A DNA stretch of 55,334 bases from a virus. Its lineage: Duplodnaviria; Heunggongvirae; Uroviricota; Caudoviricetes. Under the pieces are notes generated by a model. That model was not told the origin of the DNA. It saw only the letters and a program-made list of their open reading frames with translations, and did not search any database. The stretch is from the IMG/VR virus record IMGVR_UViG_2737471838_000004, positions 1-55,334 of that record; one strand, 5' to 3'. How positions within the stretch are numbered: the stretch's first letter is position 1; every line of letters starts with the position of its first letter. A program made the translations under genes and the position numbers. Below are positions 4,092-42,483 of the stretch, one piece after another.

Positions 4092-4267
4092 CGCAATGAC
4101 TCCATTATGTTAATTAACGGAATAATTCTACCATTTTGTGATCTATGTTGCATTTTATGCTTACACAAAATGTTTTGTTGATTTATATCAATATACAAAA
4201 TGTGGTTTTGTCGGATATTTAAGCCACCGGATAAACCGGATGAACCAACAAGAATGAGGATTCAAAA

Positions 4268-4516
4268 ATGAAAAACATGTTCAAAGTGGTATTATTCGCT
4301 GCGGCTGTTGCTCTTACTGGTTGCGCTGTTGACAAAGATGCTGCATTGCACAACCTGCCAAATAGCGGAGTGATTCCGCAAGAAATTGTCTATGATGCTA
4401 ATGGTCATCTTGTCTATGACACTGAAAAACTTCCGTATACTGGACAATGGTGTCATGAACTCGATCACAACATGCGCCGCATCGGTAGCCCGTCGAATTG
4501 TGTAGCTAACTACTAA
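4268..4516 (+). CDS. small secreted lipoprotein (moron, opposite strand to tail genes)
   Basis: 82 aa; signal peptide MKNMFKVVLFAAAVALTGC with lipobox LTGC; AGGA RBS; own terminator; located between J and stf. Confidence 0.6.
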   Translation: MKNMFKVVLFAAAVALTGCAVDKDAALHNLPNSGVIPQEIVYDANGHLVYDTEKLPYTGQWCHELDHNMRRIGSPSNCVANY

Positions 4517-4550: not shown

Positions 4551-7500
4551 TGACCAAGAACCAGAACTCCTTGTAACAAGCGCAAGTCCAGCCCTTCTTT
4601 CTGTACCTGTACTGGTGTTGGTGTATTCTTCTGTTATTGTTATGGTTACTTTTTGCGCCGTGATCCCTGTGACGCAATGTGATACCGTAAATCCAAATTG
4701 AGGCGTAGATGCCGCCCTCACGACTGAATATGTTTTACTATTTCCATTAATGTTTATTGTCACTTTTATGGTTGTTGACTGAGAATACTGATAGTAAGTC
4801 AGGTGATAAGGAATCATCACAAAAACGGTTTTAGAAAGCGAACTCGAAGACGAATCTGTATAAGTTTTAGTAACAGAACGCGATGCACTGTCCGACTGGT
4901 TAGGGAATGATGCTTGAGGTATAAAGTTAGTTGACGCGACATCGCCTACAAAACTTGTAGCCTCTAGCGACCCTTTAAATTTACCGCTATTTGCATACAC
5001 CGCCCCCCTTACCGTTACGTTGTTAAGCTCCGCGCTACCGTTTTTATTAATCATCCAGCCAGCCGAACCGGCTTTATAGTTGGTTGACTGTATTTGCTGT
5101 GCAATTTTAGCTGTAGTGATTGCTGCATCTGCAATTTTAGCCGTTCCTATTGATGCGTTTTTAATAAACGCTTCGCGCACATACATTGCACCATTTGTAA
5201 CATAGAAAGGTGTCGTATATGTGCCGTTTGCCGCCGTCATTAGCACAAAACGGTCAACAAGGAAAATGCATTGTGATTGTGTGCTACTTCCCGATCCGGT
5301 CATACCTAACGAAATCCCGGACGCATACTTCATGCCGTTATTGTCAGTAGCGATCTTAATGCTCCACGTTGCCGACATATCTGTTTCAATACCGGCAATT
5401 GCGGTTTTGTTTTCCTCGATTGATACCGATTGCCCGTCGATTGAGGCCGTGATACTTTCGATCTGCGTGGCGGTTGATTCCTTGTAAGATGTAAACGCTT
5501 CGCCCCACTCCGTGATCGATGCTTCGTTTGCTTCCAGTGATGCGCTAATCTCCGCAAACTGTGTAGCGTTGGCCTTTTCGTGGGTAGCAAGTGCCGTTTG
5601 CATTTCGGTAATGGCTGCCGACACATCATCATCGATTTGGGCTTGCAATTGCTCCAGTTTCTGCGCGGTCGCCTCCTTCTCTGTAGCAATAACTGAATCA
5701 ATGCGCTCAATTTCTGCTTTCGTTTCCGCTTTCTGGCTCTTATATTGCGCCGTTAACGATGTGCGGGTTCTGGCGTTAGCTAATGAGTTATTCATAAGCG
5801 CAATGGCTGCGTTTTGCAGGCTGGCGCGGGTCTGCATTAGCTCGTTTTCCTGCTCCGTCAATTCTACGCTGATTTCGTTAATCTGGCTTTCGTGCTCCCC
5901 AATTCCGTCCTCATTGTTTTTTATACGTTCTTCCAGATCGGCGGTTGATTCCTTCAGGTCGGTAATAGTCTGGTTCATTTCTTCCACGTCACCCATTAAA
6001 CCTCCTGTTACTTCGTCCATGGAGTCCTTGATCATGTTCTGGAATTGTTCGCTTTCCATAACTTCATTCAGCACGGCATCCGTGATTTCTTCGAAGTTTT
6101 CGGAAGGTTTACCGCTGGCTTCGATAAAGTCAGATACACCGAAAGCGTTTTTTGTGCGCACGTAAACGTAATACGTGTGCCCCGTTGCCATCCCGCCGAA
6201 GGTCCATTGATACCCGCGCCCGGTGAATTGCGCTGATGTGGTTACTTTGGATGGATCTGTGATCTGATTTTCCCCTGAGTAGTAGAACTCGTATGCTGTA
6301 TCAGTGGTTAGGGTTGTTTTGCTGATCGGGTACACCGTTGCCTGAAAAACACCAGGCACCCAATTAACGCCGACGGGGGCCGCTGGCGCACCAATAACCA
6401 GATCCACAATACTTTCTGCGCCCTTCATGCCAGTGTCATTACGACCGCGAATACCAAGCGTGTAGCTGCCTGCGTCGAGGCCATAAAATTCATAGCGGTA
6501 ATTCGTGGTTTCATAACTTGCCACCACGCGACCGTCTGCATTATATACGCGGATTTCAAAGGTAAGACGATGCGTTGTTGTCTGTGTTTCCCATGTTGCG
6601 CGGCATTGAACCGTTTCAGAACCAGCGTTTAACACTTTCAGATTTTCAATGTTAGGTACGCGGAAGTGATTAAGCGTGTCGTTGTTGATTTCGAAGACTG
6701 CGCCTTCATCAACTACGGCCTGTTTGTTAGGGTCGTGCTGTGCGGCTTCGATAGTGTATACGCTGTTATTTTCTGTTTCCGCTACGCTGGTGATCCTACA
6801 TAAAACGGGTTTTGCTGCTTCAGTCGATACAGCAAAAACAGTGCCATTGCGAATCCATGCCGGGGCCGCAGCAAGGGTAATATTGTTTCCGTTAATTCCG
6901 GTGATCTGGTGTTTTTTAAATTTACCATCGTTATCAAGTAATCTGATGGTGTCACCAGCCGCGATATATTCAGAATCAACCTTATCGACCGTTATCACTT
7001 TGCCATTGTTCGCCACGATACGACCGCCCAAACGAGCACCAGCGCGGTTATTGTCGAGGATCTCGATAATATCCCCAGGGGTGAAGTGAATGGCGTCACG
7101 GGCCATTTTAAACGTAAATTTCGACGGCTCGCGTTTTGCTGTTTCGATCAGCCATTTACCAGCGCGGTAAGCCTGTCCGCGAGAAGTACAGCCGAACGCC
7201 TCCAGCGTGGTTTCGTTGTAGCCGTCGCGGGCGATCAGTTCATCGTCAGAGACATACTCTTTTGACTGTTCCCAACCGTTACCCGGATCAGTCCAGGATA
7301 CAATCACGGCGTTGTAGCACTCAGCGCGGGCAAGGCTCGAACGGGTGAATACACCATCTACGACATTTGCGTTCGTGATAGTTGCAATCGGATCTTGTGG
7401 CGCATCAATCATCACTGTAAGACGTTGCCCATCCCATAACGCAATACCACGGAACATGCCAGCTATATTATCAAGTAAGTCGCGGGCGCTCATTTGCTCT

Positions 7501-24799: not shown

Positions 24800-26284
24800 T
24801 TAAAATCCGCGCAGGCGCTTCGGTAACATGAGGCCCATCGCCTGTGGCTGGCTCAGTTCGGTAATGCCCCATACCATTGCGTCCATACGGTCAGGGGATT
24901 TTTTGGCGGTAGCTGGCACGTATTCCATCATTTGATTTTCCAGCGTGTACAGTTCACCAGTGTGGGCCACCCTTCCTTGTGCATACAGTGCAGATATTGG
25001 TTCGGCGCGGGCGAATTTACCCTTGCTTGCGTGTACCTTAACAATGCGGCCTTTGAATCCTGCATTGCGTAGCGTGGCCTCTGCCATTTCACCGCCCTGG
25101 TTGGTTTCGATAACCATCGCGTCAGCCTCATGAATGTCGTATGCGCTCATTGCTGCTTGCGCCCAGGCATTAGGGGACATGCGGCCTGAGTAGTCACCAT
25201 CAACAGAATACTGAGCATTTTTACCGCCACCGTAAGCGGAACATGCAACGATCCCCGTTTCGTCCGATTCTTCCGATGATGTTGTAGCCGGGTCGATAGC
25301 TATTACCGTGCGGATCTTGTCCTGCGTTATCTGCATCCGGTGCGCTGCGGTTATCATGGCTTCAGTCCACAATGCACCCTCTTCGTCGAATTTACGCGGG
25401 CGCTGCATGTACTGGGCCTCAAATGACCGCCTGTGTGCTTTCAGTCCAGCTTCATGATCGTCATTATGTTTCCTGGGCCACAGCCAGCCATCAGGCAGGT
25501 TGTGAGCAATAGGGATGGCGAACTCGTTTTCAGGGTACAAATCCCAATAGTCAACGCTGTTGTCGATCTTCACTGGCAGGTTCAGGTGATACCACTTTTC
25601 CCCGCTCCCACCGCGTAACAGGTAGCCGGACAAATCATCGTAATGGATGCGCTGCATAATGACGATAACAGGCGTCGTTTGCACTGCCAGACGTGACGCA
25701 AGCGTGTCGTTATAGTTGGTGTTTACCTGCTTTCTCACTACGTCAGAATAAGCGTCAGCAGGTTTCAATGGGTCGTCGATGATTAACGCGCCGTTAAATC
25801 CTGGTTCCATATACCCGGCACGGAACCCAGTTACCTGGCCAAGCGATGAGGTCGCGTACACGCCGCCACCGTATTCTGTCCACCACATAGATTTACTGTT
25901 GGCATCATTGCGGATCTTCATGGGCCACATTGCCTGATATTCAGGCGTGCAGATCATGTTTCTTACAGTCGAGGAATTTAGTAATGCCAGGTTGTTGGAA
26001 TAGGAAACGTGAAGGAATCGTGTGCGGGGATTTATTGCGAGGGACCGCGCCATCATGTTGATAGTTGCGATCATGGTTTTGCCGTACCCTGGAGGGATGT
26101 TAATGATGAGTCGGGTTATCTCACCATTGACAACGCGTTGCAGTGCGTCGCGGATAGCTAAATGATGGCCTGAGATTAACATCTTCGTTCCGTTCGCTTG
26201 CTTGTAAAAGTAGCGATTGAAAAACAGGCCATCGTTTTCACATTTGGACTGAATTACTCGTTCTCTGATTGTCAGCATAATCAC
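24800..26284 (-). CDS. terminase large subunit
   Basis: 494 aa; Walker A-like PPGYGKT, ATPase and nuclease regions typical of TerL. Confidence 0.9.
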   Translation of the reverse strand: MIMLTIRERVIQSKCENDGLFFNRYFYKQANGTKMLISGHHLAIRDALQRVVNGEITRLIINIPPGYGKTMIATINMMARSLAINPRTRFLHVSYSNNLALLNSSTVRNMICTPEYQAMWPMKIRNDANSKSMWWTEYGGGVYATSSLGQVTGFRAGYMEPGFNGALIIDDPLKPADAYSDVVRKQVNTNYNDTLASRLAVQTTPVIVIMQRIHYDDLSGYLLRGGSGEKWYHLNLPVKIDNSVDYWDLYPENEFAIPIAHNLPDGWLWPRKHNDDHEAGLKAHRRSFEAQYMQRPRKFDEEGALWTEAMITAAHRMQITQDKIRTVIAIDPATTSSEESDETGIVACSAYGGGKNAQYSVDGDYSGRMSPNAWAQAAMSAYDIHEADAMVIETNQGGEMAEATLRNAGFKGRIVKVHASKGKFARAEPISALYAQGRVAHTGELYTLENQMMEYVPATAKKSPDRMDAMVWGITELSQPQAMGLMLPKRLRGF

Positions 26285-26766
26285 ACCTCGTCTTCTACTT
26301 CCTGGACGATGCGGGCGATCTCTTCTTTCGTGACTTCCACCTGGACGGGCGCTTCTTCCTTGTTGCCTACGATCTCCTGTGTGACGCGCTCGCCATACTT
26401 ACGCGGTTGCAGTTTTGCTAATAGCCATTTACGAGTTTCAATCATCAAATGGTGTCTGTTCAGTTCTTCCTTTTTGATGTTCTCTGGCGCGTCAGCAAGG
26501 TCGATGATCTCATCAGCTAACACCTCGAAGCCGATCTCCTTCGCGCGCATATACATGTCCGAAAACTCCGGCACATCTCTGAACCACTTGAGGATTGTTG
26601 AACGTGCAGGCATACCAGGCATCTTCGAAATCTTGTTAATACTTTCGCCGTCCGACACAAGCTCGCAGATCTCCAATGCCTTTTCTTCTGAATAGCCATG
26701 TGGACGGCCCACCTTTTTGGCTGCTGGCTTTTTATCGTCAGCATTTGCCTTTTTAGTGCGGGCCAT
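26281..26766 (-). CDS. terminase small subunit
   Basis: 161 aa; N-terminal basic region plus HTH (ICELVSDGESINKISK), overlaps TerL start. Confidence 0.8.
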   Translation of the reverse strand: MARTKKANADDKKPAAKKVGRPHGYSEEKALEICELVSDGESINKISKMPGMPARSTILKWFRDVPEFSDMYMRAKEIGFEVLADEIIDLADAPENIKKEELNRHHLMIETRKWLLAKLQPRKYGERVTQEIVGNKEEAPVQVEVTKEEIARIVQEVEDEV

Positions 26767-26776
26767 ATTTCACCTC

Positions 26777-26860
26777 TCAATATTTATTGATGATATATAC
26801 GCAAGCAACAAAACTTGCACAGTATGTTAATACTTCCAACCAGTCGAATAGCTCTTTCAT
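26777..26860 (-). CDS. mini-protein, single hydrophobic helix (27 aa, MKELFDWLEVLTYCASFVACVYIINKY)
   Basis: hand-translated; ATGA overlap with preceding mini-gene; directly upstream of terS. Confidence 0.35.
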   Translation of the reverse strand: MKELFDWLEVLTYCASFVACVYIINKY

Positions 26861-27000
26861 TGTTTACCCTTGAATCTCTGTTTTGATTCTCTGTAAATAA
26901 GCCCGGTAATCATTACGATCACGTATACGCATAACATTAACGCGATAATAAGCACGCCAGAGCAAACTAAGAACATTAACAGATCGATAAACTCAAACAT
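26857..27000 (-). CDS. mini-protein, single hydrophobic helix (47 aa, MFEFIDLLMFLVCSGVLIIALMLCVYVIVMITGLIYRESKQRFKGKQ)
   Basis: hand-translated; AAGAGG RBS. Confidence 0.4.
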   Translation of the reverse strand: MFEFIDLLMFLVCSGVLIIALMLCVYVIVMITGLIYRESKQRFKGKQ

Positions 27001-27010
27001 GATTGCCTCT

Positions 27011-27082
27011 TTACATAATCGTAAACGCCCAGGTAATAAGGACGATAGCTAAAACCATGTATATAAAATCTGACTCTCTCAT
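27011..27082 (-). CDS. mini-protein, single hydrophobic helix (23 aa, MRESDFIYMVLAIVLITWAFTIM)
   Basis: hand-translated; AAGGTGG RBS. Confidence 0.35.
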   Translation of the reverse strand: MRESDFIYMVLAIVLITWAFTIM

Positions 27083-27097
27083 ATTGTTCCACCTTGT

Positions 27098-27142
27098 TTA
27101 CGCGAAGAAAACAATAACAACTAACAGCGTGCATATAGCCAT
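27098..27142 (-). CDS. possible micro-ORF (14 aa, MAICTLLVVIVFFA)
   Basis: hand-translated; weak RBS; may be non-coding spacer. Confidence 0.15.
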   Translation of the reverse strand: MAICTLLVVIVFFA

Positions 27143-27158
27143 GATTAAGAAATCACCG

Positions 27159-27233
27159 TCAGACATTTATAATAAACCCCACAATAACAACCGCCGCGAT
27201 ACATACGAATAATACAGCTTCGATAGTTTCCAT
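27159..27233 (-). CDS. mini-protein, single hydrophobic helix (24 aa, METIEAVLFVCIAAVVIVGFIINV)
   Basis: hand-translated; AGGTGA RBS. Confidence 0.35.
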   Translation of the reverse strand: METIEAVLFVCIAAVVIVGFIINV

Positions 27234-27241
27234 ATATTCAC

Positions 27242-27310
27242 CTATTGAGTCAGCGCGGTCATGGTAAGAACAATCGCAACGATCAGGAAAAAGAAATCAA
27301 GCCATTTCAT
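27242..27310 (-). CDS. mini-protein, single hydrophobic helix (22 aa, MKWLDFFFLIVAIVLTMTALTQ)
   Basis: hand-translated; GGGAG RBS; ATGA overlap with upstream mini-gene. Confidence 0.35.
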   Translation of the reverse strand: MKWLDFFFLIVAIVLTMTALTQ

Positions 27311-27387
27311 TTTTTAAACTCCCGGTATACGTCCACGGCAATAACTACAACTACAGCCACCAGCAATAGCATTTCATATGCGTTCAT
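27307..27387 (-). CDS. mini-protein, single hydrophobic helix (26 aa, MNAYEMLLLVAVVVVIAVDVYREFKK)
   Basis: C-terminal part of ORF-track entry 27307..27492; AGGTGA RBS before internal ATG. Confidence 0.4.
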   Translation of the reverse strand: MNAYEMLLLVAVVVVIAVDVYREFKK

Positions 27388-27395
27388 GCTTTCAC

Positions 27396-27470
27396 CTATA
27401 CAACGTTCTTCCACCAGAAATAGATAATGACGGCGACCAACGACCACCAGATGAGATCGTAAATATTCAT
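27396..27470 (-). CDS. mini-protein, single hydrophobic helix (24 aa, MNIYDLIWWSLVAVIIYFWWKNVV)
   Basis: hand-translated; GAAGG RBS. Confidence 0.35.
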   Translation of the reverse strand: MNIYDLIWWSLVAVIIYFWWKNVV

Positions 27471-27481
27471 GGTGAATACCT

Positions 27482-27568
27482 TCAGCTTTCAATGAATATC
27501 ATGATCGCCAGCCATACAGCGACGCAGGCAGAAAGGATAATGAGCGGGTCAATCATATTGTCACCCAT
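27482..27568 (-). CDS. mini-protein, single hydrophobic helix (28 aa, MGDNMIDPLIILSACVAVWLAIMIFIES)
   Basis: hand-translated; abuts previous mini-gene. Confidence 0.35.
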   Translation of the reverse strand: MGDNMIDPLIILSACVAVWLAIMIFIES

Positions 27569-27664
27569 CTAATATTTGCTCTTTACGGTTATCAGCACGG
27601 CAATAACAAAGCCAACCAGAAATACAGATATACCCATCAATCCGGCAATGGTGCTCTCGTCCAT
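27569..27664 (-). CDS. mini-protein, single hydrophobic helix (31 aa, MDESTIAGLMGISVFLVGFVIAVLITVKSKY)
   Basis: hand-translated; GGGGGTGA RBS; start 2 nt after stop of the HExxH gene. Confidence 0.4.
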   Translation of the reverse strand: MDESTIAGLMGISVFLVGFVIAVLITVKSKY

Positions 27665-27666
27665 AA

Positions 27667-28209
27667 TCACCCCCGCTTAAAGCTCATAACACGCGGTACA
27701 AGCGCTTCTTTTGCTTTAGCCTTGCGTTTCCCTTTCTTCGCTGTTTTTTCTTCTTCCTTCGGCTGTTCTGCCTGTTCTAATGCCTGCTCAACGACTTCAG
27801 CCGCCTGCATTGCCGCTACCTGTGCTTCGTTTGATTCTGCCAGGATCGGGAAGAATGCATCAAAGATGCGGCCCACCATGTAAGCGTAAGTCTCATTCGC
27901 CGGATGAGATGGATCAGTGGTAGCCACGACGCCTACATCGCTTAAAACGTGAAATGTAGTGTGCGCCGCTTCATGGACCAGTGTTCCTAACTCATTGTCG
28001 AATACTGCGATCACGTAGAAGTTACCGCCTTTCTCGCCAGTGCAAGTAAGCGTCAATCCTCCTGCCAGTTCGAAATCAGGTTCGATCGGAATTCCTGCCT
28101 TTTCGCAAAATTCATAAAACATCTCGCGGGTCGGGCAAAAGAAAACGGTTGTATGCTCAAAGAGCGGTACTTTGAATTGAGGCAATTTAATGCCTTTAGC
28201 CTTAGCCAT
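27667..28209 (-). CDS. HExxH-motif protein (putative zinc metallopeptidase-like) with Lys-rich C-terminal tail
   Basis: 180-aa ORF with AGGAGA RBS; motif LVHEAAHTTFH; C-terminus KEEEKTAKKGKRKAKAKE. Confidence 0.5.
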   Translation of the reverse strand: MAKAKGIKLPQFKVPLFEHTTVFFCPTREMFYEFCEKAGIPIEPDFELAGGLTLTCTGEKGGNFYVIAVFDNELGTLVHEAAHTTFHVLSDVGVVATTDPSHPANETYAYMVGRIFDAFFPILAESNEAQVAAMQAAEVVEQALEQAEQPKEEEKTAKKGKRKAKAKEALVPRVMSFKRG

Positions 28210-29655: not shown

Positions 29656-29682
29656 AAGCAAAAACCCGGCGCGGGGCCGGGT
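29656..29682 (-). terminator. terminator hairpin immediately upstream of holin (tR'-like)
   Basis: CCCGGC CCCGC GCCGGG hairpin followed by TTTTTGCTTTG on the minus strand. Confidence 0.5.
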
Positions 29683-42246: not shown

Positions 42247-42483
42247 AACATCACCCCTTTACCAATAAGGCCAATCACCGCAGCCAGTGCGCCACAAAAG
42301 ACAACCGTAAACAGGAAGCAAATAACGCAAAACGCGACCGTTACAATATCATTACTGACTTTCATAATTAGCCTCACATATTAGTAATCAGTTTTATGAT
42401 CGCCACCGTAATATAAAGCGATACGCTGAGATACAGCACCGCCACCGCTACCGCCGCAAGCAATGCGGCAATTTTTGCAAGAT

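Follow-up and report, generated by a model that had tools for sequence, protein, structure and literature searches.

What does a temperate phage gain from a row of ten genes, each of which encodes little more than one membrane helix? The question is raised by a block of 888 bp in the genome of a tailed virus (Caudoviricetes; IMG/VR record IMGVR_UViG_2737471838_000004), analysed here over a stretch of 55,334 nucleotides that we call the window. On the minus strand, from 27664 to 26777, ten consecutive ATG-initiated open reading frames (ORFs) of 22–47 amino acids (aa) cover 94% of the block, which lies between the gene of a protein with an HExxH motif and terS, the gene of the small terminase subunit. 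An initial annotation of the DNA had proposed a tandem array of about ten translationally coupled mini-genes at this place. Our analysis gives good support to the view that the array is a lineage-specific set of ten protein-coding genes in a probable late operon controlled by Q antitermination.

Evidence for coding

The density of mini-ORFs in the block exceeds chance. We counted ATG-initiated ORFs of at least 20 aa with a transmembrane (TM)-like segment in 1000 dinucleotide-preserving shuffles of the 888 bp, and obtained on average 1.06 of them (at most 5) with a mean coverage of 14% (at most 66%), compared with the observed 10 ORFs and 94%. The rest of the window, about 110 kb when both strands are taken together, contains 43 comparable ORFs. 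The array has a GC content of 0.37–0.43 against about 0.50, and its sense strand is rich in T, as expected from codons with T at the second position.

For comparison we assembled 50 loci, consisting of the window, 46 IMG/VR loci anchored on the HExxH protein and three annotated records; L numbers below are our handles for individual loci. A Shine-Dalgarno (SD)-like motif precedes 79% of the called starts in these loci, whereas the figure for control ATGs is 17% on the antisense strand and 27% elsewhere on the sense strand. From the HExxH gene to terS, every junction measures -8 to +15 nt, with overlaps between families B and D (-4), E and F (-8) and K and C (-4). Ribosomes could therefore run from the HExxH gene through the ten mini-genes into terS, and we infer that the array is translated as a coupled chain. 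The initial annotation is borne out in describing separately initiated minus-strand ORFs of 22–47 aa, each with its own ATG and most with an SD-like site, which follow the lysis cassette and the HExxH gene, precede terS and are spaced closely enough for translational coupling.

The array is conserved among relatives. The interval from the HExxH gene to terS measures 322–1158 bp and contains 3–13 TM mini-ORFs on the sense strand and 0–2 on the antisense strand in 50 of 50 loci, so that a sense-strand array is found in all 49 relatives of the window. The ratio of non-synonymous to synonymous variation (pN/pS) is 0.08–0.42 in 18 of 18 testable families, that is, those with at least two distinct sequences; the flanking genes give 0.10 (HExxH) and 0.18 (terS). 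Among the families present in the window, C has the lowest value overall (0.08), followed by D (0.13), B (0.24), K (0.26), G (0.28), F (0.30) and E (0.38). Family A as clustered has a pN/pS of 0.33, a value that derives from its modal 75-nt members and hence describes the A2 slot. Variable alignment columns fall on codon positions 1, 2 and 3 in the numbers 121, 74 and 218, although neighbouring genes use different frames and all three frames are represented. Replacements of one hydrophobic residue by another occur at 0.20–0.23 of the synonymous rate, and radical replacements at 0.10–0.12. The rarity of such hydrophobic swaps argues for selection on residue identity, beyond hydrophobicity alone. 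Peptide C is identical at the amino acid level in 34 of 48 copies despite a synonymous variation (pS) of 0.26.

Frame-breaking indels across related phages, named in the initial annotation as a sign against the mini-genes, are rare. About six disrupted copies and one truncated remnant stand against 466 intact genes. Family G is damaged by a 1-nt deletion in L028 (~4356-4429) and by a change of the start codon from ATG to ATA in L022 (~4354-4430). In family F, the start ATG has become ACG in a four-member sub-lineage (L037, L039 and L042, ~4745-4811; L040, ~2510-2576), and a 3' remnant of the gene persists in the three-gene array of L019 (~4222-4259).

The other gene candidates in the block are three plus-strand ORFs of 60–69 aa within 27003..27572, antisense to the array, which had been put forward as possible real genes in its place. 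They are collinear in only 0, 6 and 2 of the 49 relatives, and their length across relatives is erratic, ranging from none of at least 40 aa up to 87 aa. We reject them as genes on these grounds, and the mini-genes stand. A fragmented multi-pass protein was rejected as well, as the concatenated peptides match no Pfam family. From these comparisons we hold with high confidence that the mini-ORFs are real, translated genes.

The second mini-gene offers two start codons. Its start is most likely the ATG at 27556 (MIDPL...) rather than the one at 27568, because GGGTGA lies 4 nt upstream of the former and several relatives (L002, L003, L036) start at MIDPL.

Table 1. Coordinates of the array and of neighbouring features in the window
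Feature	Coordinates	Strand	Length	Sequence or family	Remark
Mini-gene 1, family A1	27569..27664	-	31 aa	MDESTIAGLMGISVFLVGFVIAVLITVKSKY	start 2 nt past HExxH stop codon
Mini-gene 2, family A2	27482..27556	-	24 aa	MIDPLIILSACVAVWLAIMIFIES	
Mini-gene 2, alternative start	ATG at 27568	-	28 aa	(MGDN)MIDPLIILSACVAVWLAIMIFIES	
Mini-gene 3, family G	27396..27470	-	24 aa	MNIYDLIWWSLVAVIIYFWWKNVV	
Mini-gene 4, family B	27307..27387	-	26 aa	MNAYEMLLLVAVVVVIAVDVYREFKK	stop overlaps start of mini-gene 5 (ATGA)
Mini-gene 5, family D	27242..27310	-	22 aa	MKWLDFFFLIVAIVLTMTALTQ	
Mini-gene 6, family E	27159..27233	-	24 aa	METIEAVLFVCIAAVVIVGFIINV	8-nt overlap with mini-gene 7
Mini-gene 7, family F	27098..27166	-	22 aa	MSDGDFLIMAICTLLVVIVFFA	
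Mini-gene 8, family H2	27011..27082	-	23 aa	MRESDFIYMVLAIVLITWAFTIM	
Mini-gene 9, family K	26857..27000	-	47 aa	MFEFIDLLMFLVCSGVLIIALMLCVYVIVMITGLIYRESKQRFKGKQ	stop overlaps start of mini-gene 10 (ATGA)
Mini-gene 10, family C	26777..26860	-	27 aa	MKELFDWLEVLTYCASFVACVYIINKY	end 10 nt before terS start
HExxH (HEAAH) protein	27667..28209	-	180 aa	phrog_1365	upstream flank
Small terminase subunit terS, Sf6-type	26281..26766	-		PF20901, E = 3e-36	
terL	26284-24800	-			from ORF list; downstream of terS
Class II holin	29639-29439	-		PF16080; weak PF04971	two transmembrane domains (TMDs); weak similarity to P21 S
Lysozyme	29437-28946	-		PF00959	Ala/Gly-rich N-terminus, signal-anchor-release (SAR)-like
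Rz	28976-28488	-		PF03245	
Embedded Rz1 lipoprotein ORF	28768-28556	-			inside Rz; LSGC lipobox
GC-rich hairpin with T-run	29664..29682	-			terminator-like; immediately upstream of holin
Q-type antiterminator	35219-34497	-		PF03589	

Peptide design, cassette structure and distribution

The products of the array share a simple design, and the acidic or polar N-terminus followed by a hydrophobic helix that had been read from the ten peptides is seen across 22 family representatives. Their N-tails are 3–9 residues long and mostly acidic (net negative in 17 of 22, with Asp or Glu at residue 5 in 11), the uncharged core spans 13–30 residues, and 19 have a neutral or basic C-tail or none, while the C-tails of A2, O and T are net negative. 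Mini-gene 9 (K) combines a 30-residue core with a basic tail. For the window peptides, the grand average of hydropathy (GRAVY) is 0.8–2.3, the hydrophobic moment (muH) 0.03–0.17 and the mean hydrophobicity 0.63–1.0. The GRAVY and muH values describe helices that are uniformly hydrophobic and not amphipathic. The best 17-residue insertion energy, calculated on the Hessa scale, is negative in seven of the ten. It is very likely that the peptides are membrane-inserted single helices. Their charge layout, read with the positive-inside rule, predicts single-pass insertion into the cytoplasmic (inner) membrane, probably with the N-terminus out and the C-terminus in.

The suggestion that the mini-genes are paralogs of a single membrane peptide holds in part. 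No DNA repeat longer than about 20 nt is shared among the ten window genes (longest match 21 nt), which are therefore not recent duplicates, and most pairs share the design only; we accordingly rejected a tandem repeat or duplication at the DNA level within the window. Among the families of the wider set of arrays, by contrast, some do share segments, forming the groups G/M/P, B/M, D/H1/H2, I/N/L and C/R. Family M consists of the start of B and the body of G, and P has the C-terminus of G. D, H1 and H2 have M[RK]xxDF in common, I, N and L have GMAAAVIL-like cores, and C and R are alleles.

The 466 peptides of the 50 loci fall into about 21 families, which are combined in 38 architectures. Their order is strictly collinear, with fixed slots (I/L/N/T/Q, A1, (O/M), A2, G/P, (S), J, B, H1, D, E, F, H2, K, C/R); one conflict is a labelling artefact. 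Five families are near-universal, with 44–48 occurrences in 50 loci each (A1 in 44, A2 in 46, B in 48 and D in 46, together with C), and every array closes with C or its allele R. The remaining families are optional; of those in the window, E occurs in 38 loci, F in 34, G in 31, H2 in 17 and K in 12, and the occurrence of E and F is linked (r = 0.82). Copy number thus varies among related phages, from 3 to 13 genes, a comparison that the initial annotation had called for.

In a multiple DNA alignment, the differences in length correspond to whole genes with breakpoints at the junctions. The pair H2 and K is bounded by a direct repeat, GTAAACAA (window 27096-27089 and 26870-26863, minus strand), and relatives without the pair are joined exactly there, which suggests microhomology-mediated loss or gain of the cassettes. 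Family E occurs as several discrete alleles with 65–99% nucleotide identity. More generally, per-cassette identity to the window reveals a patchwork of discrete alleles, with no correlation from one cassette to the next, and the array is therefore a recombination mosaic. The alignments support well a process in which optional cassettes are gained and lost as whole genes, at fixed slots, via recombination at the junctions.

The phage that carries the window's array can be placed by its relatives. A megablast search matched the block at 90–95% identity to mEp010, mEp013, mEp021, mEp044, mEp515, mEp554 and MagusPhagus, and also found it in 35 of 5,426 complete Escherichia coli genomes, where it was chromosomal every time. 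The order holin, lysozyme, Rz, HExxH gene, array, terS, terL, portal is the same in mEp021-type phages as in the window. By sequence and gene order, the source is assigned to the mEpimmI-type temperate coliphages (mEp021 group, MagusPhagus). This group has been described as 'Nus-dependent non-lambdoid' phages (PMC11893012); the phage is not lambdoid, contrary to what the initial annotation had implied.

Searches beyond this group returned little. The ten peptides and further families of the wider set gave nothing at threshold against Pfam, PHROGs, NCBIfam and PADLOC. No toxin family in NCBIfam or Pfam was hit at E<=1, with only sub-threshold matches to unrelated families; no holin family of Pfam or PHROG matched any of the ten; and the PADLOC defence and exclusion models gave no match at E<=1. 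An Rfam search of 25.5–30.5 kb found nothing relevant and no small RNA (sRNA) family. A collection of 15 billion proteins lacks eight of the ten exact peptide sequences; B, found once, is the sole short peptide of the ten in it. K appears in databases only as 'hypothetical protein': a word search returned 22 clusters, all at least 70% identical, and a K-family profile run against 1.84 billion representatives recovered 2 clusters only and no remote homologues. When the concatenated peptides were compared by tblastn with 50,697 phage records, only the seven mEp and MagusPhagus records matched. A degenerate DNA pattern for gene C had 0 matches in 100,044 species-representative genomes, and in IMG/VR it matched almost only contigs of the comparison set, plus one short fragment. 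These searches indicate that the array is specific to the mEpimmI-type lineage. A Providencia rettgeri prophage whose terL is 67% identical has a different terS and no array.

Annotation status and operon context

Existing annotation covers the array unevenly. Records of the PHANOTATE or Pharokka style call some of its ORFs, as 'hypothetical protein'. The GenBank record of mEp021 leaves an interval of 486 bp (L055 2910-3396) blank despite five array genes, A2-B-H1-D-R. The NCBI Prokaryotic Genome Annotation Pipeline (PGAP) calls either nothing or, in E. coli O157:H7 LSU61 (L003 2571-2960, WP_171877280.1), an antisense 'hypothetical protein' of 129 aa, which is probably a shadow ORF. The array is mentioned neither in the study of the mEpimmI group (PMC11893012) nor in a 2024 review of phage small proteins. 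We found no comparable array of 10–13 different, coupled and cassette-varying single-pass proteins in the annotation, family libraries and literature searched.

Upstream of the HExxH gene lies the lysis cassette, in which the holin and the SAR-like lysozyme look like a pinholin/SAR-endolysin system. The gene of the Q-type antiterminator and the hairpin ahead of the holin together point to a Q-dependent late transcription unit that would include the array. The mEp021 record has a terminator of score 100 at the place equivalent to the hairpin, and the roughly 4.8 kb between the Q gene and the hairpin are filled by small genes without an assigned role. A scan for promoter- and terminator-like sequences found no more sites than in shuffles and one weak terminator-like site within the array; convincing sites for a promoter and a terminator of its own bracketing the array were absent from this consensus scan, which can miss promoters. 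The gap of about 270 bp between Rz and the HExxH gene contains no convincing gene.

Two further ORFs were noticed around the lysis genes. One locus (L050 2752-3273) carries an HNH-domain ORF (PF13392, 173 aa) between lysozyme and Rz that does not occur in the window. In the window, upstream of the late terminator and the holin, a 66-aa ORF at 30299-30099 (minus strand) has two hydrophobic segments and no Pfam match, MKMIECLIAVIVLLYIAGAILMSCFIKVSEADRCGFEIPFWPVLVFIAFFAATVAQIKRAIKERKK.

The HExxH protein itself matches no Pfam family. A profile search against the PDB gave chance-level matches only, and its AlphaFold2 model, with a predicted local distance difference test (pLDDT) score of 47, is too poor to use. 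One database source labels a 62% relative 'PolyVal metallopeptidase', and a 62%-identical relative keeps nearly identical peptides beside it. Homologues in P22-like phages are 35–47% identical. Those of ST64T (Orf129, L051 2501-2890), L and epsilon34 (gp70, L052 2501-2890) occupy the same slot between Rz and terS, where in ST64T and epsilon34 a decoration-protein gene follows the homologue and there are no mini-genes. The homologue hkcC of HK620 and P22 is located outside the slot. We reject a functional tie between the HExxH protein and the array, as the P22-like homologues occur without the array.

Possible functions of the peptides

In our preferred reading, the peptides would accumulate in the inner membrane late in infection and would work by residue-specific helix-helix contacts and not by bulk hydrophobicity. 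Their likeliest partner would be the class II holin and SAR-type endolysin of the phage, both of which depend on the membrane potential, and the role of the peptides would be that of antiholin-like or lysis-timing modulators. Contacts of this kind are suggested by the constraint on hydrophobic swaps and by the near-invariance of peptide C. We consider it probable, on balance, that the peptides act via specific intramembrane contacts. That the lysis switch is what they contact is possible but doubtful, and the preferred reading as a whole, mechanism included, is put forward tentatively.

There is precedent for several small holin-like membrane proteins that cooperate beside a SAR endolysin. LydA, LydB, LydC and LydD of P1 (PMC9025707), the gp25 releasin of Mu (PMC9239132) and the S21 pinholin/antiholin are, like the array peptides, small inner-membrane proteins encoded by a phage and made late. 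The genomes in question also encode both a class II holin and a SAR-type endolysin, and several of the proteins can cooperate. However, they number one to four per phage, are mostly 70–150 aa long with one to three TMDs and soluble parts, and belong to recognisable families. The array, in contrast, encodes 10 (up to 13) bare helices of 22–47 aa that match no family, vary by cassette and are placed beside terS and not in the lysis cassette. For the mode of action, the closer models are AcrZ, MgtS, MgrB, KdpF and CydX (PMC12648545), which are of similar size and have one helix that makes intramembrane contacts with a larger membrane protein, as we suppose for the array. Unlike the array peptides, these proteins are chromosomal and single, each with a known partner, and we detected no sequence similarity between the two groups.

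Several observations weigh against the preferred reading. No homology of the peptides to a holin, an antiholin or another family was found in the library searches. To time a single holin, ten to thirteen different helices look like too many. Most cassettes are dispensable, since the laboratory phage mEp021 forms plaques with five array genes and a metagenomic relative carries only three. Between Rz and the array lie about 270 bp of DNA and the HExxH gene (543 bp); the direct neighbour of the array is terS, not the endolysin gene. Within the gap from Rz to the HExxH gene, the mEp021 record shows a further, predicted terminator, TERM_6 (score 81; L055 2216-2248), whose counterpart in the window, at 28317-28280 on the minus strand, is present and did not pass our terminator scan. 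If functional, it would to some extent uncouple the HExxH gene and the array from the lysis genes, provided Q does not allow read-through. The pN/pS values are drawn from non-independent pairwise comparisons of closely related sequences, and the study of the mEpimmI group analysed virion proteins only (PMC11893012).

A wider conjecture, which we regard as possible though not the most probable outcome, is that the array is a cassette-exchanging library of bare TM helices. Its members would either be sequence-specific intramembrane ligands of different host, rival-phage or phage proteins, or co-assemble into a multi-helix device, and would originate in situ, by duplication or out of T-rich sequence, before being exchanged between phages at the junctions. 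T-rich membrane micro-proteins that arose de novo in yeast (PMC7005711) are likewise orphan and lineage-restricted, with one TM helix encoded by T-rich DNA of low GC content. These yeast proto-genes are under weak selection, whereas the array is under purifying selection as strong as that on the neighbouring core genes.

Next in order stands a role in conflict, with the peptides as moron-like accessory helices that each bind a different inner-membrane protein. Candidate targets would be the DNA-entry factors of rival phages, resulting in superinfection exclusion, or the TM effectors of abortive-infection and defence systems. The 38 architectures in 50 loci and the mosaic of discrete alleles are typical of conflict-related accessory loci, and the residue-specific constraint would fit specific binding partners. 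In lambdoid and other temperate phages the slot between Rz and terS is a site for accessory genes, for example bor, and it is hence not usually empty, contrary to what the initial annotation had assumed of lambdoid phages. Single-pass exclusion proteins of phages exist, such as HK97 gp15. In the mEpimmI group, exclusion already makes use of membrane lipoproteins (PMC11893012). On the other hand, five of the genes are near-universal and not accessory, a pN/pS below 0.45 in every family indicates no diversifying selection, and no peptide matches a PADLOC model. Promoter and terminator sites are no commoner than in shuffles and the genes are embedded in a late operon, which makes expression from the prophage doubtful; late expression would also be badly timed for an anti-defence function. 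We judge the conflict role to be rather unlikely, though not remote.

Less probable still is that the peptides depolarise the membrane in the manner of toxins such as Ibs and TisB or of auxiliary holins, and so help to set off or speed up lysis, or shut the host down. The type I toxins Ibs, Ldr, TisB, DinQ and ShoB (PMC2887945, PMC3567139) are single-helix hydrophobic peptides of the inner membrane, 18–35 aa long, sometimes in tandem and often missed by annotation. The array peptides resemble them, and in size and hydrophobicity the Ibs-type peptides of 18–19 aa in particular. Expression in a late operon beside a lysis system that depends on the membrane potential would also suit such a role. 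However, type I toxins are stand-alone units under an antisense sRNA, and their tandem copies are near-identical repeats, whereas the array is a co-directional, tightly packed operon of ten different peptides with no long DNA repeat. Neither a toxin family, in NCBIfam and Pfam libraries that should hold type I toxin models, nor, in Rfam, a described antisense sRNA family was matched. The array peptides, with a muH of 0.17 or less, are also set apart from pore formers such as TisB (0.37), with their charged or amphipathic faces, and from amphipathic phenol-soluble modulins (PSMs; 0.59); their N-tails are acidic, and they fall outside the class of amphipathic, usually cationic secreted peptides to which PSMs and leaderless bacteriocins belong. 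Residue-level conservation, finally, points to specific partners. For these reasons a toxin-like action is unlikely.

The peptides could instead form a hetero-oligomeric membrane assembly or dock on one host complex, with a role apart from lysis timing, for instance as a membrane site for terminase or procapsid assembly. Operons of one-helix subunits would be the model. Both psbE-F-L-J of photosystem II and the PSM-alpha1-4 operon of Staphylococcus aureus consist, like the array, of consecutive mini-genes with their own starts that encode peptides of 20–40 aa on one transcript. A single conserved complex requires all the psb products as subunits, the PSMs are secreted and amphipathic, and neither set varies by cassette, unlike the array. 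An assembly would agree with the fixed gene order, with tight coupling that would favour roughly equimolar synthesis, with the near-universal core of five and the linkage of E and F, with the strong residue-specific constraint and with the position directly upstream of, and coupled to, terS and terL. Many members are, however, optional among close relatives, which is not expected of an obligate complex, and our searches did not recover a membrane-anchoring requirement for a terminase of this type. We regard this arrangement as decidedly improbable.

It is very improbable that only the translation of the array matters, either as a coupled spacer, which would feed ribosomes to terS or hold them back and would prevent Rho termination, or as a tether of the late mRNA to the membrane. 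A spacer role would be allowed by the fact that no junction from the HExxH gene to terS exceeds 15 nt, and a tether is conceivable as every peptide is a membrane anchor and ten insertions would hold the transcript at the membrane. Yet a spacer or tether alone would get by with open frames or generic hydrophobicity, whereas selection keeps conservative hydrophobic swaps four to five times rarer than synonymous changes, and pN/pS reaches values as low as that of terS; and with 3–13 genes, no fixed spacer length can be needed.

That the block contains no genes at all, being chance T-rich DNA, an antisense shadow or a broken multi-pass membrane protein, might be read from the low GC content, the T-rich sense strand and the antisense ORFs, the PGAP call in LSU61 among them, but is barely conceivable given shuffles that yield about one ORF where ten are observed, a codon-position pattern and pN/pS that fit sense frames in three phases, antisense ORFs that are collinear in so few relatives and erratic in length, a peptide concatenate without a Pfam match, and units that have their own start and SD-like site and are gained and lost as units.

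Small single-pass membrane proteins of phages are a known kind, while an array of many different, coupled ones from orphan families appears to be new. Single-helix membrane proteins are a recognised and under-annotated class whose members are normally found singly; here a common coliphage lineage of the gut carries many different ones in one coupled array, under a selection as strong as that on its terminase. Micro-proteins of this kind escape standard gene callers. The array makes a clean test case for the discovery of phage micro-proteins, and its families offer about 21 naturally selected TM helices for partner searches. The system is open to experiment because E. coli supports the growth of MagusPhagus and of the mEp phages, the latter on strain K-12. 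Should the peptides turn out to act as specific ligands within the membrane, or as parts of a novel device for lysis or exclusion, they would represent a new principle of phage-host interaction, and a helix library would be a previously undescribed viral means of manipulating the cell membrane. Even with a role limited to the fine adjustment of lysis, the array would exceed in size any other set of lysis-associated membrane peptides known to us.

Other short membrane ORFs occur in the early region of the window. A 37-aa TM ORF at 42487-42374 (minus strand; MNLAKIAALLAAVAVAVLYLSVSLYITVAIIKLITNM) abuts a second one of 40–44 aa at 42365/42377-42243 (minus strand; MKVSNDIVTVAFCVICFLFTVVFCGALAAVIGLIGKGVML), and the pair abuts the flanking ORFs; together they may form a second, smaller cluster of membrane micro-proteins. 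A 30-aa ORF at 40515-40423 (minus strand; MDDTLLFMCICWGFIALCLFIRWFIEYHMR) has the design of the array peptides, with an acidic N-tail, one hydrophobic core and a basic C-tail.

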